NCBI GenBank assembly: GCA_037379345.1
Contig: CM074513.1
Location: 7,254,001-7,318,000 of the forward strand
DNA from: Perna viridis
Lineage: Eukaryota
Direction: 5' to 3'
DNA length: 64,000 nt
The stretch's first letter is position 1. Every line of letters starts with the position of its first letter. Shown one piece after another: positions 14,201 to 63,000 of this stretch. A program made the position numbers and the translations under genes. The notes beneath the pieces are model-generated. The model was not told the DNA's origin and made no database searches. It saw nothing but the letters and a program-made list of their open reading frames with translations.

Positions 14201-17200
14201 TATCCCTGAAAAGTAAAAGTACTGATTAAAATACATTTATATTGGTCAATGATATGATTTAATCTTTGTTTATGCATTGTTGGGTTGCTAGATGTAACTT
14301 TTTATATGATTTTCGAACCAAGCACATAATGTTTTTTTCATAATGAATTTAGTGCCTGATTTTGACATGATGTCTAAATAAACATAGAAAAAACTTTTCA
14401 GTACTTAATTAGATGGTAATTGTTTAATCGGTGTTTAGTAAGCCTAATTGCTTGGTCAATTAAAATCCTACAACAAAGTAGTTATACAAGGCTTTGGTTA
14501 TTTGTATGTCATCCCAGTCAAGGAATTTACTTATGTTTTGGAAGTAAAGAGCAATCAATGGAACCAAGACTCTAGTGGAAATCAATAGAATGTAATCTAT
14601 GGACATAGATCAGACATGGAAAACAAACAATCAAAACAAAGAACATAACGTAACTGAAATAATACATACAAAATAACAAAAGTAACTCGAACTCCACTAA
14701 AAACTGAAAGCATGCACCCGTAGGGAAGCGTGCTCTTCATTTCTATAAACACCTGCCCAGTAAATACATGTAACTAAATTTATAACAGATCGTCAATCAT
14801 TTTTTTGGCTTCTAATATAGATCTCCAATTTAAATTTTGTCAAGAGTTCAGAAAAAAAAAATTGTTGCTAAATACATGTCAGTCCATCTAGCATTTTACT
14901 TTTGACTTGGATTTGATATCAAATTATGGAAAAAGAATTGGGAAAAAGTACTTGGCTCTAAACATACAAGTTCATCAAGCGTATTTGTCTTTATCAAGCC
15001 TTGTTCTTTGTAAAAACGACCAAATATTGACGAGCTATTTTTTTAACTAGTAGGTTACTAAATTCTGGACAGCAAATGCTCATTTAACACCTGGATTATA
15101 ATAAACCCCTATGGTCCCGTGCGCCATAAGTAAGAATACAGATATAATATTGAATATACAACCTTTATTATTCTCAATGAATATATAATGGTGTATAGCA
15201 GGACGGCCTACCTGCGTTGTAGTAGATAAAAGATTTAAATAGCCCTTGGCTAAGGGATTAGTTTTTAGCCGAATTGGTTTGTCGCTGGCTTGTCACCGAT
15301 CGGTCTTGGGCTCAATCCCCAGACGAGGAGGCATATTCTTGTGCGACAAATCATGCTCTCTCATTATAAAGATATTAATTTTGTAAAATTTCTAGTATCA
15401 GACTATTTACGATTATTTCTTACCATGATACAAATTCAGGATTATTTTTTAAGACTGTATCGATTTCTTCCTGGCATTGTTTCATGTACTGAGGGTTCTT
15501 TGCCAGGTCATACAAAATCCATGTTATTGCACTAGTGGTGGTGTCATGACCTAAAAGACAATATATCAATATGTATCACAAAAAAGTGATATGTTTCATT
15601 TCAAAAATATATGATACGCCAAAATTTAAATTTCGGGAACCATTTCAGGGTATAAAACATTTAAAATGTGCAAACAATGTAAATGTGACCATTCATAAAT
15701 ATATTGTAGCTGACATCGTTTTAAAAAGTCCGTTACTAAGCTCTACCTCAACAATAGAGCAAACGAAAAATACAACATTTATTGCACAAAATTGCAAGTT
15801 AATTGTAATGATACTTTTGGCCAAAATATCTTGTCGAAAGAGTATCATGGAGTTTTGACACATGTCGCCTGACATAGCTAATCGATCTAACTGATCATCA
15901 ATTTCTCATCGGTAATCATATTAGCCCTGTTCATCAAACAATTGTCTATCAAACTCTCAAAATAGGTTGATCGATGAAATTTCAATTCGAAATATGATCG
16001 ATTAGTGATTAGTCTGGAAAAAAATTGAAGTAAATTAATTTAGTTGATTAAATTGCATTAAGATGGAAAAGATGTATATTTTTCCAACATTTTGAATTAT
16101 TCCTGACTAATAAGCAGCCAGTAAATATAGTAATCGTTCATTTATTAGTAAAAATCTTTCACTATTTGTTAATCAAAATCATCGTTCGTGATCGATAAGT
16201 GTTCGATTAACAGAGTTTATCAATTGACCATTTGATTAGTGACCAATAACTAATCAGTTTTGTAGATTAGTTACGTTGGGTTGACTTAATTAGCTACACA
16301 TTTCACATTCGGCAATTATTTAATATGCCGAAAGTCAATAAGACTCAATTTCACTTAATAAATGGAATTTTAGCTGCAGTAAACATTTCTACCTTAAATG
16401 GACATGAGAGATCTTTTTATGTATATGTATGAAAATTATTGAAACTCAAAACTGTATATTAGCCAATACTCGTCCCATTATATTGAAAGAGTAATTAAGG
16501 AAATCAAGGTTACAGCGGTAATCAAAAGAATGTAATCCAGAGACAAAGACCAGACATGGAAAACAGACATACACAACAAAGAACATAGAGTAACTAAACT
16601 CATACATACAAAGTAACAAAAGCAAATAAGCAACCCGGACTCCACTAAAAACTGGGAGCATGAACCTCTGCTTTTCTAGAATTACCCGCCGAGTTGTTCA
16701 TAAAAAGTCGTCCAGGGTAGACGAAAGAGGAAAGAAAAACAAGTCGAACAAATCAGTGTTCATGGCGCAGATGGATACACCGTAACGATCCACGAGTTCA
16801 TGATGACGGCCATATAACTTTTGTAGTGATGACTTAAATCTTGTAGCAACATAACCCTGCCCCAGAAGCCTATTTGTTAGAATTCAAAAAGTCTGTGTAG
16901 TTTCCGCAAGCTCTGGCATAACGTATAAGTTGTGATATGAACACTCAATACGCAGGTGCTGAAGCGATGTTGCCACAGATGAAAGGAAAGTTGACAATTT
17001 GAATGAAAAGTCATCACGTTTGTCGTAAAGTTTGGTCAATAGTTTTGCTTTACCATTGACTTCTAAGTGTAGGTCAAGATATGAGGCTGGCTTCACAGTG
17101 TCTGTAGTATCCTTTATCTCAAGTTCTTTGTGGGTAGATGCCATGTACCAAATCCCCAAAATTAGGATCGTTTAAAGATAATACGTCATCTATATAGCGG

Positions 17201-20200
17201 AAACTGAGATTAAAGGATCTAGCAAAACGATATTCTTTCTTTCGGATCAGATCAGCTATAAATTCAGCCTCATAAGAGTGAAGGAATAGGATTTCATCTA
17301 TTCGATGCCTTTTTATTGTATACTAACGGAAAAGGCAGTTTATCTATAAATATATTTATTAATCAGCACTACACACTTACCCTGCTTGAGCACGTATTTT
17401 TTTTTAGTCTTTTATATGGATAAATTGTATTATTCAGTGTGTTTGCTTTCAGTTCTTGTACGTACATTTCAGTTATTGATAACATATTTTTCATTTTCTA
17501 CTTTTTCAGTCTTATCATTCAATTATATCATTTAAAAAAATATTCAAACTAAATTTCTTTTACATCACTAAGAGAAAATGTAATATTCAATTTATATAAA
17601 AGAATGCAAGTGCAGCATTTGAAGGCGGCATGGTCCAAGCTATGAAGCCATATGGATGTTGTCAAAATTTTCCGCTGATTATAGAGTGAAAAAAAACAAC
17701 CATCCACGCATCCCTACTGTTTATGATATATGATAAGAAAGTCTTTAAAATATAAGTTATAAGACAAGCCCAACGTTATGAACCATGCCTCAATTGTTAA
17801 AAAATCTACCGAAACACTAACCATGAAGATGTACCGATTGTCGTACTAGGTATACCCTACTTGTACAGAATGAAGATGTGCGACACCAAACAATCATTAA
17901 CAACATATGCACAAACTTTTTAAAGCCAGATACCAAATGCGAAATCAATCGGTCCGATTGGACCCGAAATTTTGTTAAAAAATTTTGACTGACAGACAAT
18001 AAAAAGTGTAGGGTTCAGCAAACAATAGAAATGCGTAGATGACTGTTGTATTTTTAATGAAAACTTGTCTGAACTATAAGAAAAACGTAGAAATGGGTCC
18101 GGTTTATAACGGTTTAGAAGTTAATGAGAATCAATTAAATATTGCAAATGTCGGAATAAATGACACTGCTTAAATGAGCGACCTTTCATCGGTAGTGTTT
18201 TAAGCAAATATATTAAAAGATTCAAAAGAAACTGTATACAAAAATTACTCAAAACCCAAACAATATCTAAATAGGAAGCCAAATCCAGTACAGATAAGTC
18301 CTACCAAAGTATTTCAAAGGAACTACATCAATTAAGCCCCATATTTAATATAAGGAATGAAACCTTAGTGCTTTGAACCGAGGTTTTTCCGCATAATTTG
18401 GTGTAACTGAAGTAAGTACCTTCAAACATAAAGGTATCTACTTCTGCTCTGATATCCTCTGGCGACATCCCAACACCATTTTCATCTTTAGCTGTCAGTA
18501 ATATATCTAGGAAATCTATTAACTTCTTCTTCTGTTGTCCCTTCCGTTCATTCTGTGTGGAAAGTAAGATAATTGATTTCGGCAAAATGTCATTTTTAAG
18601 GAAATTCGACAGAAAAAGATTAATGAATTTTTGGTAGAATTTGTCTAAATCAGTTAAATTACGTTTTTGAATGAGGTATCTACGGTTTCATAAAGGTGAG
18701 CGTTTGAGTAATTTTCATATTAGGTCACAAATTAATCTACGACAATTATCGCTATTACTCATTGTTTCCATTTTTTTAAATCATTTTAAATCTGTAGCAC
18801 ACATATTTTATTTTCAACCAAATCACGACACATCTACACATATTCTGTCTAGTACTAATAAGTACTGAACATAAAGATAAGCGTGTGTATTATTTTAAAA
18901 GTGGGGAAAAGTCTAACGTTTTCTTTTCAAGTAAAAGAAAAAAATCAAAAAATAACAATGGGACAATAATAATCCTATTTTCTACCAAAACGTGTTTCCT
19001 GCTTCGAATGACTTTGTCAGCAACATCATGTATTAAGTCACAAACATCACTGAATGCTTTACCATCTTTGCTGTTGTTCCATATAAAATCAAACAGGTAT
19101 AGAGGAGTGCTTAAATCAAAGGGATGAATAATATCAAGTACAACTGGAAAACAGTGGGTAATTCTCCCTAATTGATACTTCTGTTCCCCAAATTACGAAG
19201 TTACGAATCTGTTGCTGTGTGAAACTATGAAATAGATTTTGATCAATATCAAAATTGGCAGTAAATCATGGTATTATTAAATAACGGATATGTGAAATTT
19301 TCTTTGAAATCCATTCAGCGATGTAAGAGAAGAGGAGTAACAAATACGTATATGAGAAAGGTGCATATGGAAACAATAATCTGACTAACACGCGTTTGTT
19401 AAATATGAAAATGGTATGGAAATAGTCATGATCATGCAAAGCCAAATCAAAGATTCATTGTGCTACGCGCACATGATGAACTTCCACGTATTTTTGAGTA
19501 GCTCTTTCGGTCACAAGGACCGCAAATAATGTGTCAAGATTTGAGACTAGGGAAGGGCCATGGGATTGATAAATATTGTTTTTTTTTTATTATTATTATA
19601 GTTTTAAAGATATTCTATATATGAAATTCACGATATGCCATTTGTTTTGTTCAACATTTCAGAATTTTTCATCTGCACTCGAAAGATCTTCTGGAAACCC
19701 TCAATTCAAAATTATTATCAGAATACAAGTTTTAAAACCTATGATTTTTCAACTTTGTGTACTTCTATTCCTATACTAAGTTAAAATTCCGACTCAAAAA
19801 CATTACACATCGTTGACTGCCTCTTTGCTGGTTTTTTTTCCGGATTACATTATTTTCATTAGAATAGCTAGAATCTCGTTTCCCTTGATTACTCTTTAAA
19901 TGGAGGTAAGGGTTGGGGTTAAAAAGTAGCTTAAAAAGGCTGACAATGCTACATGTCCCTATGTTTTGACAGTCACAAAAGATGACATATGAAACTTAAA
20001 AAGCAATATATGAAATTACTATAAATGTTTGAAAAAATAACCTTTAAAACAGGTTAGCATCGAAAGCAGTGGGGGTTTATTTTACTGATTTTTTACCTCT
20101 AATCAATACTCACAGATTTCTACGGATTATCATCCGAGACGCATCTGTGACCGCTTTACAATACGAATGTTGTTTTCTATAAAATTAACAAAAACAAAAA

Positions 20201-36971: not shown

Positions 36972-39900
36972 TTTTCATCTTTGGTTTAGCTTCTTCTTCT
37001 CCCTCTAAGAAACTTGTCTAGCTACATGTAACAATCAAGATCTTACCCAGTATGTCAAGTTGGTACTGAAAAAGGCAATAACCAGTATGATAGAGACTTC
37101 ACAAACAAACCAAAATAAGTTGATGACGAAAGTCAGTGTGTCTAGAGGTTTACCAGATATCAACTGGTACATTATAAACATAGTAATAAAAATGTTTATT
37201 CCGAATACATTCATAATCAGATACTTAAATCCGCCATCTAAAACCTCAACAGCTTTACACAGCTGATGGTGTTTCCTCCTTATGCTTTTGAGACAATCCA
37301 TTAGCATAGGTGTTTGGCCACTGGCCTCGTCTTTCATAGCTTGACTAAATGAAAAATTGAGAGAACGAAACTGTAACGACAATGTTAAACTGATGCAAAT
37401 AAAGAAAAACACTGGCAGTATCCAAACAGCACTTTCAAAAAGGAACGTTGTTATCATTAAAATAGACAGTGGGATGCTTTCGTGATCAAAAGGGTTGACA
37501 ACTGATGCCCTAAATGAATTAGTTTTGTCCATGAATGACAACGCAAAGATACCAATAGTGTTAGCCAATACCAGTGGAACTCCTATAAGCACTGACGACA
37601 TCGAATACGCTTTCAATTTTCCACAATGTGAATTTAGCTTTATTTCCTTAGCTACCCTGTCAGTCATTAATTGATTATACATGTAGACAAATTCTGGTAG
37701 TTGATTATTATTCTCGCACATAATAAACAAAATAATTCCAGTTATTGCACTCTGGATAAGTCATGCACATACAATGACTCTGGAAATAGTTATATCAGAC
37801 ATATAATTCATTCCAACCCAAAACGATGGGATATACCGGACGGCATTCATTATCATAGCCACCATGATGAAAAGATGGTAAAACTTGCCGAAAGTGTTGC
37901 TCGTGTGTTTGCTTCCTCCATTGGTTGCGGACATTTCATCTCTATTAGCGTTGTCAATAATAGCTGCCCTTCTTCTCTCATGATAAATTCCAAATAAAGT
38001 CATACACGAAAAAAGTGGTTTGAAAGCCTTGCATATCGGAAGAAAATATTCAATGAAGTGATCCTCTTTTTCAATGGGTTTCACAAGCGTTTTCATCGTT
38101 ATTAATTTTGATATTTTAACTTGAAATTTAATTTTGTAACCCTTTCGACAAATGTGCTGGATTACACTGCAAGGAAGACTTTTATTAGAAGAGATCGACA
38201 AATATCAATACTATTTCATCAATGCATCCCATATGAATTCTAAGTAATTGCGAACTTTATTACTTGAGTGTTTGGTGTACTAAAGTCATTAATATTTTCA
38301 TAAAACTATGTCATTGATTATTACTTAGTATAAAGTAAATACTGCATTTTCTATAGTTCTTGTTGGTACACATATTGAACATTTTACTTTGTTACTGTCA
38401 CTTTGAAATATCTAGTTATTGGTTGGCTACTGAAAGTGCGTAAGTGTTTAAGGAATTACTGTGATATTTTTTCGGTCTATGAAGAAATAACCTCAATCAC
38501 GTTGTGCACACTAAATAACCAGCATAGCAAGTTATTTTATGCAGGTTATTTTAAAGTGTTCACCACGGGCATTGAGGTTATTTCAAATAGACCGAAAAAC
38601 ATAACAGTCATTCCGTATAATTTAATTTAAGTACCAAAGTTCGAGGAGTAAATCATTAAAAAAAAGTTTGAAGACCTCACAGTCATTACAAAATTTGGTC
38701 TATGAGATGAGAACCGAATTTTTTTATCCAATCAGAAACCGAGTTACTTCTGAAATTAAATTATAAGCTTGTAAACGGTCAAAATCGAATATAAGAATAA
38801 TATAAGTGTACGTGGTTATTATTTAAAACCCCAAAGAAATAATGATTTATTCCTTGTGTATATTTTTAAAAATTGTTAAAATTTTGTCGAGTAATTCAAG
38901 CTTAATTATGATCACCAATATGTATTATCTATGTAGAGGTTGTAGTTATGTGCCAATGGAATAAAAAGGCGCTCTGCCTGACATTTACAACGACCTGTGT
39001 TTAGTGTTTTAGTTATATTGACCATCTATCCACTTATCTGATTAAAGCTTTATTCGTCCTATCTTGTCAGCATTTCAGTAATTTCTGATATAATTACAAA
39101 TACAATTATCAAAATATTTACAGAAGTTAAAATTATTCTGCAATTATATGAATTACACCATTACCGGCAAATTCAATAATCTCGGTTTATAACTGATTTG
39201 TTCTCGGTTGTGGGTTCAGTAAATGGAAAACTGACCTAAATAAAAGCTTGAATTGAAAAAATTTATATGTTAATATTTAATCGTTTATTTCAGTTTTCTT
39301 TCTGATTATTTTCCCGAAGCATTGTACATAGGTGATCAAGTAATTATCATTTTTTTTATTCTGGGGTAAAAAACTAACTTACATGTAAATTAATTAGCCG
39401 CAAAATTGTAAAAACTGTAAAATAAAATATAAATTGGAATTGTAATATTTAAACATTTATTTGTTTTGAAATTTTATTTTAGTCTTGTTTTTTAAAGCTT
39501 GGATGAATGGTACATTGTATAATCAAGTAGTTATAATGTATTTTGATCTTTGATCTTCTCGGAGTGTCTTCCTCGAATGCCAACATTTTATATGTTACCT
39601 ATTCTTTGAAACATGATACGTTTCGTTGATGCTGAGCGTGCCCTGTTAATGGCGGACGATTTCCATTGCTTCAACATTTCATCACGATAAATGTAGGTAT
39701 TCTGACCAATATGGTTTGAAAAACAAATTAAAATATCCCACATCAAGTTGTCTCCGGACTTTTTCAATGTTTTGTTTTGATCAATACCTCGACATTCGAG
39801 ACTTTAATCTTATCAAATTTTCAACCTGGTCCCACCTTCGAAGGCGTACTTCTCTACTCATTAAAATTCAAACTCTTTTTCCAAACCCGATCAATCGTCA

Positions 39901-40814: not shown

Positions 40815-41309
40815 ATATAATATAATTGTTATCAGAAGTGACATTACAGGTCATCCTTCCATGTCAGGGTTTTGAGTCCACCCTCGCTCCCTCAAACCCC
40901 TGACATCACTCATTCATATTTAATGGATATCGTCCAGCCAATTCCGATTGGTTGCTTCTCCGGGTGCGAAGCAGCAATGAAAATTGATTTGACATAAAAT
41001 GTCTGTGGAAAGGTAAACAATGATACGAGTAACTGATAGTTGTAAGATGACATAAATGATTCAATATGACCAAAAAATGATAACTGTAGATTATGTTTAG
41101 AGTCTTTAGCAAAAAAAAATGACGTTATGTTTATATAGCCATTTTGTAAGTTATATCGAAGAGTTTCTATTACGAGTGATTTGACTGGATTTAGGATCCA
41201 GGTTAAATATACAATATAGGTACATTGTCGAAAATTATTGAAGATATGTGATGAGGCGGCGGAACGGGTGGGAAATGCGAGGCTCCGCCGAGCTATTTCC
41301 TCCTTTCCA

Positions 41310-42864
41310 AGCTGGAAATGTTCTACTGCAAATTGTCCTGCTACAATTAATACATTAAACAATATACCAACCAAAGTATCAGTAAATCACAACCATGAGT
41401 CTGATAACGTGCAGTTGAAGGTAGATGTAGTCCTGCAGAGCATGAAAAAACGTTGCATAGATGAGCTCACTCCAGTTTCCACTATCTATGAAGAAGAATT
41501 AGTAAAACTCAGAACTGATGACTGGAATGACGACACACAAGAATCTAACACACTTAGCAACTGCAGAAACTATATATGGTGACGGCACATTTTATACATG
41601 CCCTACTCAATTCTACCAACTGTACACTTTCCACGCAATGGTTGACAACGCAATGTATCCGCTAGTGTACAGCTTACTACCAGCCAAGAGCGAACTTGTA
41701 TATACCAGATTTCTTACTCTACTCAAAGATTTATGTCAACAACATCAACTGCAACTTCAACCTACTACTATCTTTCTGGACTATGAGGTCGCCATACGCA
41801 ACGCAGCATACTCCATCTTTCCTGGCATCAACGCAAAGGGCTGTTTTTTTTTTCACTATACTCAGAGCATTTGGCGAAAAGCTCAGGAAACAGGTCTACA
41901 GGTGCCTTACAAAGAAGACAACAACATCCACCAATTAGTACGTCATGCAGCTGTGTTACCACTCATACCCACTGCTGAGGTCGAAGACGTATGGTTTAAT
42001 GCCCTTACTGATATAGATGATGTTGAAACAAACGCCAACTACGTTCCCTTCACTGACTATGTAACAACTTACTGGGTAGAGCAGAACAGACACTTATGGA
42101 ACCACTACACAACAGAAGGTCCAAGGACAACCAATCACTTAGAAGGATGGCATAGTAAACTTAAGAAACATGTTCAACATCCACACCCAAACATATTCAG
42201 ACTCATAAAACAACTGAAACATGAGGAAGCCATCCACGACTTGACTATGATTCAATACGCAGCTGGTGGTAAAAGAGCAGTACAAAAGAGAAAGTATGTA
42301 GACATCAACAACAGGTTAGCAGCCCCCAAAACAGACATCGTAACCAGGAAGTCACAACTGTCCAGTTTGGTGATGCAGCTTCATACCTTCTGCACCTTGA
42401 CTAAATTGATGAACTGTTAAATTGTTATGTGAAAACAAAATAATTGTGTATGTTTAATATATATGATCTAGTGCTTAATATCGTAGAGACTGGTTGAATG
42501 AATGTGTTTAAACTGATATTGTTACTTTCTTATGTCTTATGACTTATGTATATCAAAAACTACTGATTCATTAATATACATTATGTATTCATATATATAA
42601 CTGTTTATTTATATTTCCTTAAATTAAAAAGTATAATATTCAAAATTTACTTGTTTCTTTTTAATTATATTTATGCAACAAAATGGAAATTCACTGACAA
42701 AATATATCATTTACCTGTCATTAATTACAAAATCAATTAACACCTAATCAAACATTGTTTATACAGTATAATCCTTTATCTACACTATTTTCCACCTATT
42801 CCCACATGAAAATTTACCTTTTTATTACCTATTTTATAAAAAGTGGGAATAGGTGGAGTGAACC
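41310..42864 (+). mobile_element. Mutator-like (MULE) DNA transposon, 5'-truncated and internally deleted
   Basis: FLYWCH-like remnant (WKC..NCPA..HNH) and DDE core YGDGTF..QLYTFH / FLDYE / GCFFFH / RTTNHLEGWH in ORF 41518-42420. Deletion and frameshift near 41540. A 15-bp inverted repeat (42791-42805 / 42843-42857) marks the probable right end. Confidence 0.88.
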
Positions 42865-44758: not shown

Positions 44759-47700
44759 ATGATGTTTATTGCGATAGTGAAATTGTTTGTGTTAGTTTTT
44801 ATAAGTGGAGTCAGTTCTAATATTGGTAAGTGTATTTTTTTTATAGTATATTGAGAATAATTTAAAGATGCAATTTATAACACAGTTACACGTTGCAAAT
44901 GTCCACTTTCTACAATGTGCAACTCGGAGATTGAAACATGTATCACATATACATGTACATTTGTATGTATAACTATACTAAAGCATTTTTAGTTAGCTGG
45001 CTAGATCACGCAATATTATTCTAATAATTATTTCTTATCTAATACAAAATATGGAATAGTCTTGTAACTGACCAACGATTTTTTTTAATTTCCGAGATAG
45101 AGTTGTATGTCTCGAGCTTCACATCATACAGATTGCAAATTAGTTGTCTTCGTATTTTGTTTCAAGAGTATGTCATGCTGTCAATTGAAACAACGAAATT
45201 GCAACTTTTAACTTTATAGACAACCAATATTTAAAAAAAAAACTGAAAATAAAAAAAAAAAAAAAAATACAAAACGCAAACTATTTGTTTTTAACAGTGA
45301 TAAAAGTGTCTGTCCTTCACGTTCAATTTACTTTTAATTTGCATTGTACATGATAAAGTGTATGGAAGATAATATGGAGCCAAAAAAAGAAATATCCGTC
45401 TCATATTCAAAGTAGGAGGTTGCTCCTAATCTGGAGATTATTCAATGACTGTATAATTATAAAGCTGACTGAAACATATTAGGGGACATCACCCCCCCCC
45501 CCCCCGTTCTCAAGTTCAAAGTACACTCCATGTTCTGGGTGAAGTCCCAAGTACAATTTTACTTTTTGGTAAGGTACAAAGAACTTTGACTTGTGTGTCT
45601 ATGTCTAAAGTACACTCTAATAATGATCAAAATTCCTAAGTCCAAAAAGGGGGGTGTGTATAACGTTTATATATACACTTGTACCATAATTTATGGATCC
45701 GCCCCTGCCATATATAACTCTGGTAGTTGAAGTAAGTCCCTATTAGGGTAATATCTGGTAGGGGTGGATCCATAAATTATAATGGGGTGGGTCCGCATTC
45801 AAGCTGTCATTTGACAATTTTTGTCCATATTACACACAATATTTACAAACAAAAGTGTGATATGAATTACCGGAACCCTCTGGTTCCGCCGTTATTGTCG
45901 TATTGATATTAATATTGAAGGAAAGTTCAAATGTGATCATTCTGTTCCTTCGTGGGCAGTGTCAGCTTTAGACTTGCTTTTACATACATGTACATGTATA
46001 TACACTAAATTAGATTTCCTTTAGAGTTTTTACTTGACGACCCATAAAAAAAGTACGATGTTCATATTTTGCAGGGTATTTTTGGCATATCACAGACATC
46101 CATTGGGATTCAACTTACATGCAAGAAGGACGATCTTGTCAAGGAGCAGTCGAGGACCAAGATTCGGTGGGAAGTCATGGTATTTTTGGTGATTATAACT
46201 GCGATTCACCATGGCGACTGGTATACTCAATGGTAGAGGGCATACGAGATTTGAAGTCAGACCCAGACTTCGTTATATGGACAGGGTACATTTTATAAAT
46301 ATAACTATGCAAGGGGGTAGGTAGGCAAAGGCGAGATGGGGTGCTTTCTCCGTAAAATGTAGTTGAATCAGTAAAACAGGAAAAGAAAAGGATAAATCAA
46401 TTTTAGAATCATGTTAACATATTCACATGTAGAGAAACATCTTTAAACATGGTACATTCATTTAGAAGGGCAAACAATTAGGAATGGCTCTCAAGATGTT
46501 TTGCCATGCTTGGCTGGGCAATTAAGCTTTCAAATTGCCTTTATGACTTCAAATCTTAGATCCGCGTCTTAAAGGTACAGTAATATTCAAAAGTCACCTC
46601 CCAAGCCAGAGACTGGGGATCATTTTTTTTTATTTAAATCAATCCTTTCTGGTTAATTCTAGTAGAATTCCCAATGCCATGAATGCAATGCACAAAATGT
46701 GAGAACAACATAATAATACTATCTGGTAAACAAATGTAGCTTTTATGGGGTTAAAAGTATCTCTTTTTTTGCTGATTAAGCAAATTTTATATTTCCAGGG
46801 ACACCGTTCCAGACTTTAACGAAGAATACCTGAAACTGAATGTTATCGATAATATCCTTGGAAACGTAACGTATTTAATTAAGGAAACCATATCCGGAAT
46901 TCCAGTGTTCCCGACAATGGGACATCGTGATTTCAGCTTCACCGTTCAGCTTCCAGTATACAATGATACTTTTGAGAAATGGAAAAGTTGGATCAGTGAC
47001 CTGAATGCAAAAACGTTTACTAAGGGTTTGTATTAGGAAATTTATTTATACGTTGTTCCTTTTTAGCTCACCTGGCGGAAAGGTCATGTGAGCGATTGCC
47101 TTCACAATGTGTCCGTCGTCGTCTTTGTCCGTAAACATTTTCAAACATCTTCTCCTCTAAAACTACACAATAGATTGTAACCAAATTTTGCATGAATGTT
47201 CCTTGGGGTATTTTCAACAATCCTTGTGTGGGGATTGTTGATCTGGCAAAAACATGGCTACCGTTACTAAAAATAGACCATAGGGGTCAAATTGTAGAAT
47301 TATGCAAATAACTCAAAAACAGTTAGGTTTTATTAAATAAAATCTGGTAGGGGTAAAATTGTTCAGCATGATGGGATGGATCTATGCCGAAATTTTCAGA
47401 AAGATCAGTTGACGAATGAATGAGTTATGAGTCCTGAAATGGATTTTTTCCCGAATTTTACATTTCCAACTTAGAAAATCTTCTTCTCTAAAACTACAGG
47501 ATGAATTAAAACAAAACTTTGCTTGAATTGTGTGTAAAATATGTTAACCATTCTATGTGTGGGGATTTCTGATCTTGCGAAAAATAAGGCCACCGTTAGT
47601 AAAAATGGACCATATGGATCAAATTGAAGAATTATGCAAATAACTTAAAAACGGTTTAATTTTGCTAAAATCCGGTAGGGATAAAATTGTTCAGGATAGG

Positions 47701-50700
47701 ATGGACCTATGCCGCAATTTTCAGAAAGATCCGTTGACGAATGAATGAGTTACCTGTACGGGTGGGTCCTGAAATGGATTCCCCCCCCTGAATTTTCATT
47801 TCCAACTTTGAAAATCTTCTCCTCTGAAACTACCTGGTTGATTAAAACAAAACTTTGCATGAATATTATGCAGAATATGTTTAGCAGTCAATGTGTGTGG
47901 AATTTTGATCTTGTGAAATACATGGCCACTGTTTCTAAAAATAGACCATAGGGGTCAAATTGAAGAATTATGCAAATAACTCAAAAACAGTTGGGTTTAC
48001 CTTAAATCTGGCAGTGATTTTAACTGTAGCATGATTGGATTACCTACATGTACGTGAATGCCGAAGTTTTCAGAAAGATCCGTTGACAAATGAATGAGTC
48101 ATGGGGGCTGAGATGGATTTTTAAAAAATCTCCACTTAGACAACTTGTAGGATAGATTGTAACCAAACACTACATGAATGTTTGTTAGGATATCCGTAAA
48201 AAAATTTCATCGTCGAAAACATGGCCACCACTGATAAAAATTGACGATTTGTTGAAATTACTTGAAAACCAAACGGTTTAGTCTAATTTTCTAGGGGGAA
48301 ATGATCAGCATGGTGATACCGACCTACATGTATCCTGAAATTTTCATAAAGGTCTGTTGCTCAGTGTTGCAGTTATTGCCTTTGACAATGACAATTAGTG
48401 ATTTATTTTATAATATGAAAACCGGTGGATAACTAAGATGCTCTGTATTGATTAAATGATTCTTGTGACAATAGTTTGGTAAGGTCAAGAGTCCAGCTTT
48501 AGGGTGCTTTAAAGGCTGTTTTTGACCAGGTGAGCGATTCAGGCTGTCTAGAGCCTCTAGTTTTATTTTCTGTCCCCCTAAAGTGTTGCAGAGTGACATG
48601 GATAAGGTATCTTAACAATTTATTAATTCAGTAATTATCAAGTCTCATCCTTTGTATAATTCACAGGACGAAAACTTTAACATATTTTCCTTACTCAGTT
48701 ACATGTATAAAACAATTTTGAAACAAGAATTTAAGCACAGATCTGCCTTAGAACCATGCAGACAGAGGCTAATGATTAGTGAATCACATTTTTTGTACTG
48801 GAAATCTTTCAGTAGGCCTCATAGAACTTGTTTTTGACAATAAGAGTACTACTGATAGTAGATCACTGGAGATATTAAGTAAACACTTATATTTTAGTTG
48901 ATTCTACTACAGAAAAGTACGTGAAAATTTCCCGCAAAAATTTTTTACACTAGTAATCGTTAAAGAATATTTAACAAAATATAGCAGATCAAAGGAAAGG
49001 AACGCAATGAGAGGACTTCGTTATTTGGGCGTAAAAAATGTATTTGAACAATTTCTTCAAGTATAATCTATACAATGAACTATACATAGGCTTATATAAA
49101 TGTGTATCGAACGGCTTAGCCTGCCAGGAAAAACCACAAAACCCAACTTTCAGGTTGTGCAACTACTTTATATGTAGGAAAGTTCTGTAGAAACATGTGT
49201 CCATACCCAATGTAAAAGACTGTCTCAAGAGTTATACCTGGACGAAGTATAAGTTTAGAAAATTGGAAAACAAAATACATGTAGAATATTATGTCTATTA
49301 GACACATCTACCAAATATTATTGAAAAAATCATAATCATAATAATAAAATTTAAGCAAAGACAAAAAAATATATCTACTATATTTTTACTGAAACTTGAG
49401 TGTTGGCCAGTCAGATGTAGGCTAGAAAGTGATTACAAAGGGAAAATATTCCCGCTCAAAATCTACATCACGTGATAAATATCCCGTGAAACATTTCACT
49501 AGTACCGTCAATACAATAATTTCCTACTATACTATCGAAACGTTGGAAATCATACGTATAATCTATACATTGAACTATATATTGGCTTAAATAAATAAAC
49601 AATGCTATATATTGCAAATAACCCTTTGCGACTAGAAATATATAAAGAAAGTGCCCAGTTGTTATCTTCCAAGATTTTTGGACACTGACATTCTCTTTTC
49701 AAGAGTGTATTCTATATATATCCGTCTTTTACAAAATCAGTTTTTCATCTGCCGTGTCTCTTAATACATCTTTTGTTAACATTGGACTCCGCAGCGGCAG
49801 TGACACCACCTGAACGTAATAAGTTTAAAGTTGGTGCTTTTCAAAATATTTTCTCTAGCTGCTGTATAGCTTAAAGGTTTCATTTTATATATAAATTTTG
49901 TAACACCTCTAGATCTAAATATAGGCTTAAAAACAAAATCATCCGAATGAGTGTCCAAACCTGATATCTTAACATAACGTTTGTACATATTAACAGGACA
50001 TGCAACAGTAAAACATTTGGAAATATCGTTTCCTTGTCTATATTTATATGTTTTGCTATTAGCAATAAAAATCTTTAAATACTCATCAAAAATTTGAATG
50101 TCTTTACATTTTAAACTACTTATATCGTCGAAACGTAAAAATCCTGAGTAAGCGATTACAATCATAGTAAGATCTCTGATTACAAGTAGGTCATCGGTGT
50201 TTTCATAGATGGAAAATAAGTCAATAAGTATTTCGTTATTTACAGGACCTTTCTTGTTGACGGGTTTACCATTCAGTCTTTTAGCGGATTCTAAAAGTGA
50301 CTTAACAAATGAGTTTTTTTGTTGGATCTATGAACCCGTTTATTTCGTGAGCCCACTTATTGGAATAAACAGCGGAATTAACGACACTTGGAGAGCACTG
50401 TATGTCAATTAAATAAGTCATGTATAAAGCTACATGTGCTGGGTCTGCTGACAATTCTTTCAAACCGTGTTCATTTGCAAACCCTTTCCATCGGTTGAAG
50501 CTCGAAAAGTCTTTTTGGTAGTGTTATCACTTTTTGAGTCCACTATTGTTGTAACCATCTTACTGGCAAGTTTCTGAAGAAATGTTGATTTTCCAATACC
50601 GCTATCTGCAACCGCCTTGTCCACACTCTGTTTCAGGCTTATTCCTAAAAATCACACATATAATTAAAATCTTATCTTAACAGCCAACATTTTAAATTTA

Positions 50701-53700
50701 GTTTCTCGCCAAACACTCCGTTCTTTCCTACCCCTTTTGTGATTACATTTTTACAAGGTAAGTATTTGATCTCATGTACAAAATCTGGTGTACCTATTTT
50801 AGTGTACAACAAATGCCAGAAAGGAGAAGATTACCATACTGGTACTATAAGAGTACCTTTGGCTCTATCTTGCTCTATTTTTGTTATTGTCTTGCTATCA
50901 AATTTGGTGGAGGGACCAACCAATTCGTGTCATCACACCAATTCCGAGAAAAAGCATCTACTGCCTCTGTGCCTGGGTACCAAATTTTAGGATTGAATCT
51001 CGTACACTAGGTGTTATAATGTGTAGCAAACCTGTCAATGCTGTATGGACCCCATGTTTTGTTAAAATAATGAAATATTTTGCTTTTTATTGTCCAATCA
51101 TCAGGGTTTGTGTGCCTACTCAACTCATTGGCGTACTGATTTTCTGATCTAGGTAACCAATGTGTTTTTAATTGTATATTTTTGATTTCGCACACTTTGT
51201 GAATATCTAATGCTATACTCTGAAGTCCACTTTTCTTACTACCGACTTTCAATATGTGTGCCACATTTCGATTATCTGAGTTTATACTAACTCGTCTGTT
51301 CTCTAAATTATTTTCAAATGTGTTCCATGCACGCCTTACGCATTCGAGTTGAACTCTCTACCTTTTCGTCGGCTGTCCAATTGCCCGACATTTCTTCTCC
51401 AGAAACACTAGAAACGTGTTCTGGCAAAATAGCCACCAAAGCCTACATCTGAGGCGTCACAAAATATGTCAAAATCTGACTCCAAAACACGATCAATATC
51501 GGAAATATTTGTTCCTTGATCGTTAAATATTCTACATGATTTCTCCCAAAACATAATTTCAGTAGTAGTATATTGTGTTATTTTCACAGGTGAATCCCCA
51601 CTAGCTCTAGACAAAGTACAATCATGAATACATCTAGTTCGTAATCGAACTTGATCTCCTATAACAATTTGCATTGATATCAACTGACCAAAAATGTTAG
51701 CTAACGACCTAACTGGAAATAAAAGCTTTCCATTCGTTATTTTTTTGCATCAAAGTTTTCGCTTTGGTCTCAAATCTATCAATTCTCTCTTCTTTAACAA
51801 TAAATGTTACCGATTTCGGTATTCCAAGTATACCCCAACCAATCAATTTTTTGAGTTGGCTTCTTAATGCATTTGTCATGTGCCATTGAAAAACCCTAGT
51901 TTTTCTATCTGCGTTTTAACCCTTATGTTTGTTTTACTAGCTTTGTCAAAATCACTATCCCCTCCGAGGCCATCATCCAAAACATAATGACCCTTTCACC
52001 CTGTGACCTTAAATGTACTTATCTTTTTCTTTTCCGGACATTCATCTGTCCAATGCCCCTTCTTTCCGCGGTTGAAGCACCTCCCAGGTTTCCATGATGA
52101 TGTGCTTGGTTCCTGCTTATCTTTACCGTAAGGAACTTTCCTTATCGATTTTCCTCTTTTCGTCTTGTCTGCATTGTTCTTGCGTTGAGCGCGTTTCTGA
52201 GCTTTTATCATTTTCTTTTCATCTTCTGAATCATCTGCAATTGGGTTGGCTATGTATTCATTTACAACCTTCCAACCAAGTTCAGATGAATCAGAGAGCT
52301 TAATTAGTTTTTGTCTGTCTTGTACCAATTCAATATCTTCGGCTGTCTTCATTTTAGCAACCTGGATGGATCCAAAATTCAACTCGGGCACTTCCAAGTT
52401 TGTGTTTGCCTCTTTAAGCTTATTTAACACTTTCACTTCATGCTTGTACTGGTTCTCATTCCCTTTTCTCTGAAAGGTGTATTTGTCAGTCAGTGTCTCC
52501 TCAATCTTGGTCATTTGAGTGCGAAATTTCCTTTTGTGTTTGTCTAATATCCGAATGAAAAGCTGAGAAACGGGTATCCATCATTGATGAAATGTTTGAC
52601 ACAAAATAATGTTGAGCTGCACTAACAGCAATCTTCACTTCCCGAGAAATAGCTTCTTTAATCGGTGAGTCTAACCCAGTGACCATTTTGAGTGCTGGCC
52701 AGTCAGAAGTAGGCTAGAAAGTGATAACAAAGGGAAAATATTCCCGTTCAGAATCTACATCACGTTATAAATATCCCGTGAAGCATTTCACTAGTACCGT
52801 CAATACAATAATTTCGTACTTTACTATCGAAACGTAGGAAATTATACTTATCTTGAGATATAACGAATCACCCTCTGTCTGGTTTTTTAAACAGACCCAC
52901 ACTAAATTAATATTGAGTACTGATGAAAGCATATTGTTTTTCTTTTTACCAGGTGGTTACTACAAAATGAAGACTAAGTTTGGGTTACTGGTGGTTGGGC
53001 TAAACACAAACCTTTATCAAAAAGGGCATAAGCAGGCTAGTGATGAACTGGATCCTTCAGGGCAGTTCAAATGGCTTGAACAAACGCTGATATCAGCCAG
53101 AATAACTGAAGAAAAGGTACTTTTGTTACATAATTCGAATCCCATCGCTCATATGTATTTTCCTTCTATTTACACTATTTGCCTGGTTCATAAATTTTAG
53201 TTTGCACGCTTTGACAGCGTATACAGGTCATAGTCATATTAATCACATATGAACGGTGTCTGTACGAAGGCAGACTTCTTTATTAGGACAGGGAACATTT
53301 TGTAGATACAGCTACGGGCGAGAAAGTTAAAATATCACTTCCAAAGCTTGAGATGGGAGTTTTTTTAACCTTGGTCATTGTAATAGTACTCCTCGTTTTC
53401 GCACACTGCAATGAATAAGCTATATGAAATATGAGCAACGACCACTCTTCTTCGGAAAGTAAATATGTTAAATATGTAAATAAATGTGTTATTTTTATCG
53501 TAATAAATCAAATTTTATAAATTCTTATTATCTTACATGTATCGGAAAAGCCATATGGACCTCTGAAATGGTTATAAAAAGATGGCATGCGCATTTATAA
53601 AACGAGGGTCGATTTAGAAACTAAATGGTGGAACAGGCTTTACTTTGCTCATTTTGTGCCCAAGTCGTGCATAAAATTTACAAACTTCTCCAATAAACGG

Positions 53701-55157
53701 GGGAGGAGGGGTCGCAAAGACCGACTGGAACCCTTTCCTGGATCCGCCACTGATATTGGGTTTTAATATACATAGTACAATGCAGTATGCTATAAATTAT
53801 ACGTTTGAATCATTGTCATACTGCAATACATGTACATTCACCGCATCGATGTGTTATTTTGTGAATCATTTCTAGGTTTTAATTACTGGCCACATTCCTC
53901 CGGGTGTGAATCCAGTCAATGGAGAACCTTGGATGCAAGAACAATATAATGCACGACTTAACAGAATTGTGAAGGCAAACAGTGATGTCATCACAGGGAT
54001 GCTTTTTGGACATGAACATTCTGATAATTTACGGGTCTACCATAATGAAAAAGGCATGTACTTCATATATTCCTAAGTTTTGAAGAATAGCAGCATTGTT
54101 ACTAAAATCTAAATATAATTAAAATAGCCCTGCAAATTGTTCAATATGACAATTGAATTGTAGAATAAAATCTAACACCACTTCATTCTTCTTTCTATTC
54201 TGGGGATCTTTCCAGCAGATAAAAATGCATGTAGTGTTGTTAGACCCAAGATGACGTGATCGAATAGGGTGATAGCAGATTTAATTTCACTTAAATTGTT
54301 TTGAATAAATTATTTTTATATCAGAAATTTTGTTGAATTAAATTTAATAAGCAAATGACGAAGCTACAAAGCATGCATAATATTCCGTGTCAAAGGATAG
54401 ACGGCGCTGTCTTATATATAGTATTGGATTTTTTTTATTTGTATATGACTCCTTTTGTGATTGACTAGTTTGGACATTACTCTCGCCCTTTTGCTTCACT
54501 ATATAATTACTCGCATTTTATGCTTTTATGGAATAAAACATTTTATAGATTTACAAACTGGACTTATCAATATTATTATCATTTGTAGGTAAAGGCATAG
54601 TATCCCAATTTGTGGCGCCCTCAGTTACACCAAGAAGAAACCGTGTCAGTAACTTGACAAGTTCAGCGCACAATCCAGGCATGAGGCTTTACAAGTATGA
54701 CAGACTGACTGGAGTTATTTTAGACTACACACAGTATTATATCGATCTACCACAGGCAAACACAGAAAATGTTGCGACATGGGAAATAGAATATAACGCG
54801 ACATCAGCCTACGGAATACCCAATCTCTTACCTTCTTCTATGTCAAAACTTGTGGACGTGATGAGAAATAAATCAAGTTTAGAATTCAGACAGTTTTTCA
54901 AATTCTGGACCGTCAATGTATCTGAGACCGATATGGATGTTTGTGATGAGCGGTGTCATGCTAAATTTTATTGTAATTATAAATTTCAAAACTATGATGA
55001 GAATTTGGACTGCTATGACAGATATTTTTCACCACTACCGGTAAATTCCCAAGGAACATCTGTATTAGATTCCTACTGTGTGTTAATACTTTCAGCAACA
55101 GTGTGGACGTATTTTGGCTTTAATCTAGGATTTTCATTTTCTGTGATGCAGTTATGA
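44759..55157 (+). CDS. SMPDL3: Acid sphingomyelinase-like phosphodiesterase 3 (SMPDL3B-like, probably GPI- or TM-anchored); 6 exons, 471 aa
   Basis: Exons 44759-44825 (signal peptide MMFIAIVKLFVLVFISGVSS), 46075-46285 (GYFWHITDIHWD, FGDYNCDSPW, PDFVIWTG), 46799-47025, 52953-53116 (GGYY, LNTNLY, DPSGQFKWLE), 53876-54053 (TGHIPPG, FGHEHSD), 54589-55157 (APSVTP, HNPGMRLYKYD, LDYTQYYIDL, WEIEYN, hydrophobic tail). Total 1416 nt, open throughout. Intron 5 needs a GC donor. Confidence 0.92.
47061..48562 (+). mobile_element. Non-autonomous Helentron (HINE, pearl/CvA-like) with about 4 internal repeats of about 335 bp
   Basis: 5' TTTTAGCTCACCTGG subterminal IR, GTCC/GTC microsatellite, tandem cores (ATCTTCTCCTCT..AAAACATGGC..AAAATAGACCATAGGGGTC), 3' CCAGGTGAGCGATTCAGGC..GAGCCTCTAGTT hairpin end. 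Confidence 0.85.
49061..52851 (-). mobile_element. PAT-like (DIRS order) tyrosine-recombinase retrotransposon, degenerate, in SMPDL3 intron 3
   Basis: Gag 52686-52020 with a degraded knuckle (CFNRGKKGHWTDEC). RT 3' part (VIMFLDDG after a 1-nt shift; 5' RT deleted). RNase H (FCDASDVGFGG, HWLPRSENQYANELSR). Methyltransferase-like domain (DRFA, PGTEAVDAF, NWLVPP, GTLIVPVW). YR about 50644-49664 (SGFLRFDDI, SKT..YRQG, RSGGVTAAA, RHGR). Direct repeats: A 52688-52851 and 49396-49556; B 49556-49596 and 49061-49101. Confidence 0.9.
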
Positions 55158-60000: not shown

Positions 60001-63000
60001 GTATAGTTAATACCATTAGTACTTGATCATGTACATGTAGCACCACCATTTTAATTTAATGATTTTTTTAAGTTAATTGGACTTTAGTGCTTCAAATTTA
60101 TTTAGTTAGTGGTGAGGGGTATGGTTATCAAAGTATGTGTAGCAATCTTTGTAATTGGTTCCAAGTCATCTGAGAATATAAAGAATTCAAAACAACAGCT
60201 AATTTTTTTTTCTATTTTACTTATCAAATATTGTTTAAATATAGATTCTTCTTCAGTAATGAGTAGCATAAATTTGCTTTCTACATTCTGTGGTAAAATT
60301 AAGATTTTCAACGTGGCAGCTGTAGGGAGCATGTGAAAATCTGAATTTTACCATAGAGAGTAGAGAAATGATTCTAATCTACAGTAATCTGAAGGAAAAT
60401 CAGTTTCTCCCATAAAAATTTGTAGAAAAAATTGGAAATTTTTTAATCGTAGGAAACTTTCACAGAAATTTAATCTAATTTAATTAAATTTAATTTAAAC
60501 AAAGAACAAAAATATAAAAATTAGATTAGAATTCTCAAATCAGCTCAAACCACAAATTATAAGATTTGCCCTTTAGATGTACATGTACAATATAAACATG
60601 TACAAGCAAAAATTCATGTGCATTAGTCAACTTGGGCATATGTACTTATCACAGACTGTGGAGAAGTTTAATAGCAGTTCTGATTTGTAGCTTTTGGGAC
60701 TATTATAACACACATGTACAGTAGCATGTTAATTTTAATGACTGTTGATTAATTTTGTATTAATTTCTTTTGCAGCAAGAAGTGAGTTAAAAGAATTAGT
60801 TGGTGCACAGATCACTTGGGGGTAAAGTTTTTTTTTTTGTGTGCTAGAAAAATGTACATGTACTTTTCCTTTCATTACTGTTTAATGAAGAGTCAACTAA
60901 GAAATGTTTTTAAATGCAATGTGCTGTACTTAGCTATTTTTATTTGATATATGATTAAGAAAGATGATATTTAAAATGAAAGGGAATTTTCATATTCTGT
61001 CATAAAATATATATGTACATGGTATGAGTCATGTAGCCAATGTTAAATTCTGTTTCTGGCAGGCTCTTACAACATTCTGTCTGTATTACTGAGCTGTATT
61101 TGTAAGATGTTTGGGCCTTTTTTGTTGCCTTTGCAATGCAGAATTTCAAAGTAGCACTGGTCCATGATCCTGGACCCTCAATGTCTGATACAGGACCATT
61201 GAAATTTCATTTTCCAATATTTTGGATCTATCATGTTGTGCAATTACTTTTATTGACTGAGGACTTTCACTTTCTTTTTGTGGACCTTTCATTTGGGATG
61301 CAAAAAAGACCAGAAATTCTCACTCTCAAAGATAAATTTGAACTGCTGCAGTATTAATTTTTTTTGAGAGATAACAAAAGTTGAAGAACTGAATTTTTGT
61401 TTCATAATAAAAAAGACCTATTCATCTGCATCAACTTACAAAAACCACTTGACTGTAATGTTTGTGATTTTAGGAAACAGGTTCAGGATGGAGGAGGCCA
61501 GTCAACCATTATTACAAACCAATCAGAACTACCCATCAGGACAATGTCAGATAGCTACAAGGAATGTATGATACCTGTAGGGAGTGATGAAGTCCTTCGG
61601 GAGAAATATATAAACTTCATTGGAGGCATGAGGTTTGGTAGGATTTTAGAAGACTTAGATACTTTTGCAGGTTTGTACATAAAAATGTATTGTAGGACAT
61701 TTATCTCTTCTTATGGTGTACTACCACTCATGGAGTAGGTGGTATACTGGAATAATCTTGTCCATCTGTCTGTTGGTATTTTACGTACATTTCCATTTAA
61801 AAATCAAACAAGTATACAAAGGTGGTTGGCACATTATGATTTTCTAAACTGGTATTTAATTTGCTTGTTTACTGTGAAAGTACTTTAATTCATGGATAAA
61901 AATTTTCATGGATTAGCGAAGAAACACAAGTTCCATATTCTTGAATTCATGGTTTTGAGGTTTTCATTACACATATCAATGAAAATCTCCTTTTCGTTTT
62001 GAACCAAATTTCATGGTTTGGCCAACCCACGAAAAGCACGAAAATTGGCACCCCCACGAACAATAGTACTGTCACAGTAGTACCTTTCTACTCTCTCCAA
62101 AGGAAAACAGCTGATATTTAAAAATTTCAAATTTCTGAAAAGAATTGTTAAATGTAAATATAAAAAAAACACACACACACACAAAAATAAGGAATCAATT
62201 CCTACCATGTGCCACACAGTTTTCAGTATACAATTGAATGTTTTTTTCTGAATTGTTAACAAAGGGAAATGGAAGTATTTCCAGTTTACATAATAATACA
62301 CATTGTCATTTTATACTGTGTACTGGAAACTTTAAATGTAGTATTTTTTGCTATGTGTTGAATGTTTTTTTTGTGTTGTGAATTTTGTGGTAAAAAAAAA
62401 TATTACTTGAAAAGGTCCTGCAAGCATCTTTTTTCACAAAAGGAATTTTTAATTTGTTTTCAAAACTACATACATGTAAATGAATAAAACAAGTATGCTT
62501 AAAAGAGCTTCACTCAAGGCAATGTTAGCTATCTCAGAAATAAGTGTCACTTTGAGCCTTTAGTTATACTGAAGCATATAGTTTCAATTTATTTTTCAGT
62601 TCTGATATCTTACACACACAGTACCCAAGGATCAGATAAAAAATCTCCGATCTCCATAGTAACAGCTTTAGTTGATAGAATAGGTATGTACATGTACATG
62701 TATTTGTAGTCCTAATGTAAGACGAAAAAGATCAAAATTATCAAAATTTTTTTCAAGAGTGAAAGGACCCAGACTTTTTGGCTTCCTAATTGAAAGGTCC
62801 CCTATAAGAAAAATAGTACCTTGGTAAATCATAAAATGATATTACAAAGGTTGAAGGTCCTATACCTTGGACCAGTGCTAATTTGAACTTTTGCAGACAT
62901 TATCTCCTACTCTATAATGCTGTTTACAATTTACATATATTGGTGACTTACTCAAATTTTGCCAACTTAAACCTTCAGATTCTCTTATTGAAACTTAGAG

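Follow-up and report, generated by a model that had tools for sequence, protein, structure and literature searches.

The SMPDL3-like gene considered here raises the question of whether a member of the acid sphingomyelinase (ASM) fold family can exchange an active-site metal ligand and both neighboring histidines and still act as an enzyme. The gene lies in a 64,000-nucleotide stretch of Perna viridis DNA (the window), and a preliminary description had singled it out as an intact SMPDL3 paralogue carrying GHRD for GNHD and Asp for the motif-II His, with a new substrate or a non-catalytic binding role suggested. An answer depends on whether the changes are real, how old they are, whether relatives share them, and what the same positions do in characterized enzymes.

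The spliced reading frame of 1416 nt (471 aa) runs through six exons and is open throughout, in line with the intact frame first proposed (Table 1). The other metal motifs, DIHWD, WTGD, GHIPPG, and GHEHSD, are all retained and can be read directly in the exons, and the CDSP Asp of exon 2 is the counterpart of the ASM Asp that partners the catalytic His. The six cysteines of the fold and the splice sites are intact, and all indels are in frame. Exon 5 ends at an apparent GC donor (54053/54054), where paralogues have GT in the same phase.

Table 1. Coordinates of the SMPDL3-like gene, its altered motifs, and other features of the window.
Feature	Position	Strand	Observation
Exon 1	44759..44825	+	ATG; hydrophobic, signal-peptide-like N-terminus (hydropathy 2.4); GT..AG joint to exon 2 in 4/4 runs
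Exon 2	46075..46285	+	Motif I D30-x-H32 (46095-46103), CDSP, WTG; spliced contigs
Exon 3	46799..47025	+	Bridging D94, motif II and III loops, 5-residue loop deletion after QLP, P140F
D98 (GAC) for motif-II His (ASM H282, mouse H280)	46812..46814	+	CAC/CAT in the 4 paralogues compared; X1 contig, 0 differences
G134-H135-R136-D137 for GNHD	46920..46931	+	GGACATCGTGAT = GGA CAT CGT GAT; X1 and X19 contigs, 0 differences
Exon 4	52953..53116	+	NTNLYQ; Y191Q at 53018-53020; loose end of X19 contig behind 47027 is the start of exon 4
Exon 5	53876..54053	+	H229 (53891-53893), H269 and H271 (54011-54019); GC donor inferred
Exon 6	54589..55157	+	PSVTPR; W298R at 54633-54635; ASMase_C domain with four Cys; hydrophobic tail; stop
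Retroelement-like insert, broken (intron 3)	49396-52851	-	164-nt direct repeats 49396-49559 / 52688-52851 (93%); gag-like ORF, RVT_3 match, sub-threshold tyrosine recombinase match
Repeat units of ~330 nt (intron 3)	47144-48560		Very deep contig cover in 4/4 runs; high-copy dispersed repeat
Adjacent hydrophobic ORFs	3825-6253	-	Stops and frame changes, no Pfam match; possibly one broken membrane-protein gene
Cytochrome P450 exons	13923-19192	-	PF00067
7tm_7 chemosensory-receptor-like frame	37035-38204	-	Interrupted by a stop or intron
MULE transposase	41220-42420	+	Two frames
Candidate exon	61385-61738	+	No Pfam match

Several lines of evidence place the gene. Exon 6 matches Pfam PF19272 (ASMase_C) at 91 bits, with a cut-off of 23.7, and among PDB entries it matches SMPDL3A with an E value of 2e-19. 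SMPDL3A and SMPDL3B (PDB 5EBB, 5FC1, 5KAR) are the best matches for both exon 3 and exon 6 and rank above ASM; with them the gene has in common the calcineurin-like motifs, the ASMase_C domain, a signal peptide, and the absence of a saposin domain, the signal peptide directly adjoining motif I. Exon phases are common to the gene and the SMPDL3 paralogues. Structure matches, the ASMase_C domain, the tree, and exon phases together put the gene within the SMPDL3 family by descent, which bears out its original assignment. SMPDL3B is GPI-anchored, and the protein ends in a comparable tail (~55071-55154) that is moderately hydrophobic (window mean up to 1.33) and GPI-signal-like; secretion and GPI-type anchoring would follow from these hydrophobic ends. 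Acid sphingomyelinase (SMPD1) shares the fold family and the layout of metal ligands but differs in having a saposin domain and in keeping both proposed proton donors, which are replaced here. Unlike SMPDL3A and SMPDL3B, the gene carries H98D, N135H, H136R, P140F, Y191Q, and W298R and a loop five residues shorter.

Exon 3 reads D94-T-V-P-D98 ... P-T-M-G134-H135-R136-D137-F, giving the changes H98D, N135H, and H136R. The codons reported for GHRD and for D98 are present as described and are covered by contigs with 0 differences, and the shorter following loop is confirmed by alignments as the deletion after QLP. Because the flanking anchors keep the G134-to-QxP spacing, which alignments show to be equal in the gene and its paralogues, N135H and H136R are substitutions rather than slippage. 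A metal-capable residue stands at 7/7 ligand positions (D30, H32, D94, H135, H229, H269, and H271), and six of the seven match the canonical set D, H, D, N, H, H, H, the Asn having become H135. The canonical motif-II His (ASM H282) and motif-III His (ASM H319) are both replaced, by Asp98 and Arg136.

Further changes in the pocket region are P140F, Y191Q, and W298R. Position W298 aligns (SVTP-Y / SATT-F) with the aromatic residue stacked against the catalytic His of ASM, the human numbering being inferred. Six outgroup rows agree fully at 69 columns; the gene keeps 59 of these, the paralogues pA, pB, and pC keep 66-68, and the broken copy L030 keeps 41 of 50. The ten departures are H98D, N135H, P140F, Y191Q, W298R, P303S, and four conservative changes, with H136R additional to them; the first five are non-conservative and lie at or beside pocket motifs. 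A test for enrichment at conserved columns was significant for broken L030 as well, so this test alone cannot separate constraint from recent decay or relaxation. Judged by ligand Asn and the two histidines, the sequence does not qualify as a canonical ASM/SMPDL3 enzyme.

The changes might still have been artefacts, and contigs from four runs of four studies (X1, X4, X18, and X19) bear on this; their library type is not on record and they are presumably RNA. Exons 1 and 2 are joined across a GT..AG intron in contigs from all four runs. Contig #5 of X1 crosses the joint between exons 2 and 3 and covers 46798-46954, including both altered motifs, with 0 differences, and contig #17 of X19 covers 46870-47027, including GHRD, with 0 differences and continues into exon 4. 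Exon 3 is covered by X1 and X19 only, X4 and X18 being without it. These contigs were taken as transcripts because introns are skipped exactly, and since spliced contigs from two of the four runs cover GHRD with 0 differences, the active-site changes are not assembly errors, in agreement with the preliminary description. In genome searches each exon had a single match at 100%, and no copy lacking introns was found. The gene itself is therefore not an assembly error, and it is probably not a pseudogene: its 471-aa frame is open and its transcripts are spliced, where a pseudogene would be expected to show a broken frame or lost splicing.

The 723 Mb genome (46 contigs) holds five further intact-looking SMPDL3 paralogues and two broken copies, L029 and L030. 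Five own-genome copies, namely the gene, pA (L021), pB (L022), pC (L023), and broken L030, form a clade with support of 93/95 and 96 in two trees (L092 was partly out of frame in the first and left out of the second, and L062 was in neither). Within it the gene has the longest branch, 1.0-1.1 substitutions/site. Every paralogue comparison shows saturation at synonymous sites (pS 0.76-0.83), with dN values of 0.43-0.51 for the three closest copies; the duplication is therefore old, and saturation of dS makes dN/dS not computable. These comparisons mark the gene as an old, fast-evolving member of a five-copy clade. As to the other members, pB (G000:C3, ~1.31 Mb) is intact and reads GNYD and AHGH, its Tyr standing where a His>Tyr change is pathogenic in human ASM, and pC (G000:C8, ~26.22 Mb) keeps both histidines, reads AHEHTN (G>A, D>N), and has a 5-residue duplication in exon 3. 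The broken L030 and L029 lie on the gene's own contig (G000:C3, ~0.41 and 7.59 Mb); L030 reads DNYPR, GNYD, and TPRR and shows a stop and frameshifts as well as tandem duplications within exon 5.

Such a neighborhood invites the explanation that the gene is a redundant duplicate under relaxed selection, transcribed but drifting toward a pseudogene like L030 and L029. H98D, N135H, and H136R each take a single base change, the branch is the longest of its clade, L030 has likewise lost both histidines and shares W>R, and an orthologue was not found, albeit in collections where most animal genes are present as single-exon pieces. Against this, the frame, splice sites, and six fold cysteines are intact, the indels are in frame, and long divergence is suggested by Y191Q and P140F, each of which takes two base changes. 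In simulated neutral drift with indels ignored, a stop-free frame survived in 22% of runs at 2% divergence, 1.7% at 5%, and 0/2000 at 10%; survival is thus below 2% at the ~5% drift that the lost invariant sites require. Relaxed drift is accordingly regarded as quite unlikely, and saturated dS, the simulation, and the spliced contigs establish that the gene is not long dead. The preliminary description had named lack of expression and neutral evolution as observations that would count against its reading; the spliced contigs and the low frame survival point the other way.

Relatives with the same motif were sought in several collections. No second GHRD was found in homologue, representative, or metagenome searches, nor any orthologue with D98/H135/R136 such as the conserved GHRD clade envisaged in the preliminary description would contain; since most animal genes in these collections are present as separate exons, the absence of an orthologue is weak evidence. 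Homologue searches with exon 3 gave 33 candidates in the longer search, none of which scored, and no candidate in the near one; exon 6 gave 179 candidates, none of which scored. The representatives search gave 17 matches, from which seven long multi-stretch proteins were dropped as probable noise; among the 10 examined, motif III reads GNHD in eight, GNND in one, and GNYD in one, the last identical to an exon of an own-genome paralogue; in one of the ten, Arg replaces the motif-II His. ESM Atlas gave only unrelated phage-type clusters or nothing, with low recognition, phage tblastn gave no match, and NCBIfam had no match for exon 3. A published account of such an SMPDL3 variant was not among the matches listed for SMPDL3 in oyster and mussel, SMPDL3 expansion, and metallophosphoesterase pseudoenzymes, a search covering few subscription papers.

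The metagenome scan returned 78 loci, none above 49% identity over a full-length exon-2 match, and 44 with an exon-3 match. Motif III could be compared in 41 loci, many of them near-duplicates: 39 read GNH, one GNR (L071), one GHE (L103), and none GHR, a distribution indicating that GHRD in this gene is not chance. The motif-II His is kept in 38 loci, a count that omits three misregistered partial rows (the second match of L080, L086, and L087). Single changes at the two histidines do recur in other invertebrate-type copies, as GNYD (two own-genome copies), GNND, GNRD, and motif-II His>Arg, and since these second-shell positions change repeatedly and the named changes are single-base steps, the uniqueness first ascribed to the site was overrated. 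N>H together with loss of both histidines was seen only in this gene and L103. L071:131-1960 is itself an intron-less SMPDL3-like ORF with GNRD, CGSP for CDSP, and a Cys-rich insert of >100 aa after the last metal motif.

L103:8017-8226, on a metagenome contig, is an SMPDL3-like exon that reads GHED, has no motif-II His, and has a following loop ~10 residues shorter. It thus shares the Asn-to-His change, the missing motif-II His, and the shortened loop, but has Glu after the His where the gene has Arg, and it is known from three exons of one locus. L103 presumably resembles insect CG32052-type proteins; CG32052 is listed as an SMPD1 homologue. In both best trees L103 falls outside the gene's clade, and an AU test with motif columns included did not reject joining them (p 0.15); convergence is favored over common origin. 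A charge swap between D98/R136 and R/E of L103 is not claimed, because the aligner puts a 2-residue gap there. A broader idea is that protostome SMPDL3s rebuilt the site as a "GH-x-D" type more than once, or once anciently, with Asn>His at the metal, both histidines turned to charged residues, and the loop shortened, the gene (Asp...His-Arg) and L103 (no His...His-Glu) being two instances. Such a site would either catalyze through two metals or serve a specialized receptor that senses a nucleotide or lipid outside the cell, and either role would be new to the family; this idea is speculative and considered unlikely.

What the lost residues do is best described in ASM. The roles first cited for them hold in two structure papers: N318 binds the metal and makes a contact to the phosphate as well (PMC5062611), and H282 and H319 are proposed proton donors whose roles are disputed between PMC4961792 and PMC5062611. 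The latter prefers H319 as donor, has Y488 stacking on H282, and records severe disease for H319Y. In mouse ASM, H280A (position 98 here) is fully inactive, even on bNPP, and H317A (position 136) slightly reduces bNPP activity and abolishes activity on liposomes (PMC4961792). Elsewhere in the superfamily, published work describes the GNH Asn of CthPnkp as strictly essential, with no rescue by conservative substitutions, His not being among those described (PMC2190708), and a 45-120-fold fall in kcat for zebrafish ADPRibase-Mn H97A on substrates other than 2',3'-cAMP (PMC3407115); loss of the motif-III His spares or raises activity on some substrates (PMC3407115, PMC2190708).

Read against these data, the gene could be an ordinary SMPDL3 nucleotide phosphodiesterase that tolerates its substitutions, given that six of seven ligands and the CDSP Asp are unchanged and that mouse H317A costs little bNPP activity (PMC4961792). 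Canonical activity is unlikely, because mouse H280A is dead (PMC4961792), and the motif-II His is kept not only in the 38 metagenome loci but in 5/5 other intact own-genome paralogues; this explanation is judged very improbable.

The best explanation is a membrane-anchored, metal-binding SMPDL3 pseudoenzyme or ligand binder in which both second-shell catalytic histidines are lost, a judgement as to which the scales are about level. It ranks first because no donor would be left under either ASM proposal and the stacking partner is also gone. The essential Asn of CthPnkp, the kcat loss in ADPRibase-Mn H97A, the five non-conservative changes around the pocket, and the evidence against a long-dead gene favor it too. 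D30, H32, D94, H135, H229, H269, and H271 would form a two-metal site, and the general acid would have disappeared once H98 became Asp and H136 became Arg. R136 and R298 would supply positive charge, and either could form a pair with D98 that locks the pocket. An anionic head group, such as a nucleotide or phospholipid phosphate, could then be bound at the cell surface with little or no turnover. Many pseudo-phosphoesterases keep fewer metal-capable ligand positions, and it counts against a pseudoenzyme that all seven remain metal-capable here and that active enzymes with comparable residues exist in SoxB (His-Trp) and LpxH (Arg at the R136 position).

These precedents favor a retuned, active hydrolase, in which H135 would ligate the second metal and R136 would grip the leaving phosphate as in LpxH, acting on a substrate that needs no general acid, for example a phosphoanhydride (nucleotide-sugar, CDP-alcohol, or NDP-lipid). 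The matching His of SoxB is a metal ligand. In alignment, SoxB (PDB 2WDC) reads HWE where the 5'-nucleotidase 2Z1A reads NHE, so SoxB thiosulfohydrolase (2WDC, TIGR04486) resembles the gene in having His at the Asn position and a non-His residue next to it in an active superfamily enzyme; it differs in belonging to the 5'-nucleotidase family, in having Trp rather than Arg, and in its S-S substrate on a carrier protein. Its hydrolytic role is described in PMC9774590. The Arg precedent cited for LpxH also stands: R80, at the position of R136, is needed, its Ala mutant being 7000-fold less active (PMC6286764). The likeness to LpxH, a UDP-diacylglucosamine pyrophosphatase, is the single shared Arg after the motif-III ligand position, whereas LpxH keeps the Asn (GNRD, not GHRD), carries a cap domain of its own, and works in the bacterial cytoplasm; the PDB matches to exon 3 and exon 6 include no LpxH chain.

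Retuning is further favored by the description of the GNH His as a substrate determinant in PMC3407115, by a metal-capable residue at every ligand position, by the long branch with an intact frame (pA and pC have branches of 0.2-0.35 substitutions/site), and by the same N>H in L103, with His at neither position. Conversely, D98 places an acid beside the phosphate where ASM needs His even for an activated substrate (PMC4961792), ADPRibase-Mn requires the GNH His for phosphoanhydrides (PMC3407115), and no orthologues with the new residues fixed were found in collections consisting mostly of single-exon animal fragments. A retuned hydrolase is thus possible, if somewhat unlikely. Mammalian SMPDL3A hydrolyses ATP and cGAMP (PMC11624235); for the new substrate, immune role, or cGAMP role suggested earlier, this analysis offers no support.

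Elsewhere in the window, the retroelement-like insert of intron 3 is taken to be DIRS/Ngaro-like, and the candidate exon near the end presumably resembles acyl-CoA thioesterase 9 (Table 1).

The gene is a real, expressed, and new active-site variant of a known family, and its sequence suggests that it is probably catalytically disabled. As it stands, it is one divergent paralogue of an expanded family; the finding gains weight if the GH-x-D parallel with L103 is a recurring design or if orthologues fix the motif. If the protein is active, a solution like that of SoxB and LpxH would have arisen inside animal SMPDL3, pointing to an unknown extracellular substrate. Should the protein be a pseudoenzyme, SMPDL3 would join the enzyme families with surface-bound dead paralogues, and the gene would be a natural knockout of the two histidines disputed between the two ASM structure papers.
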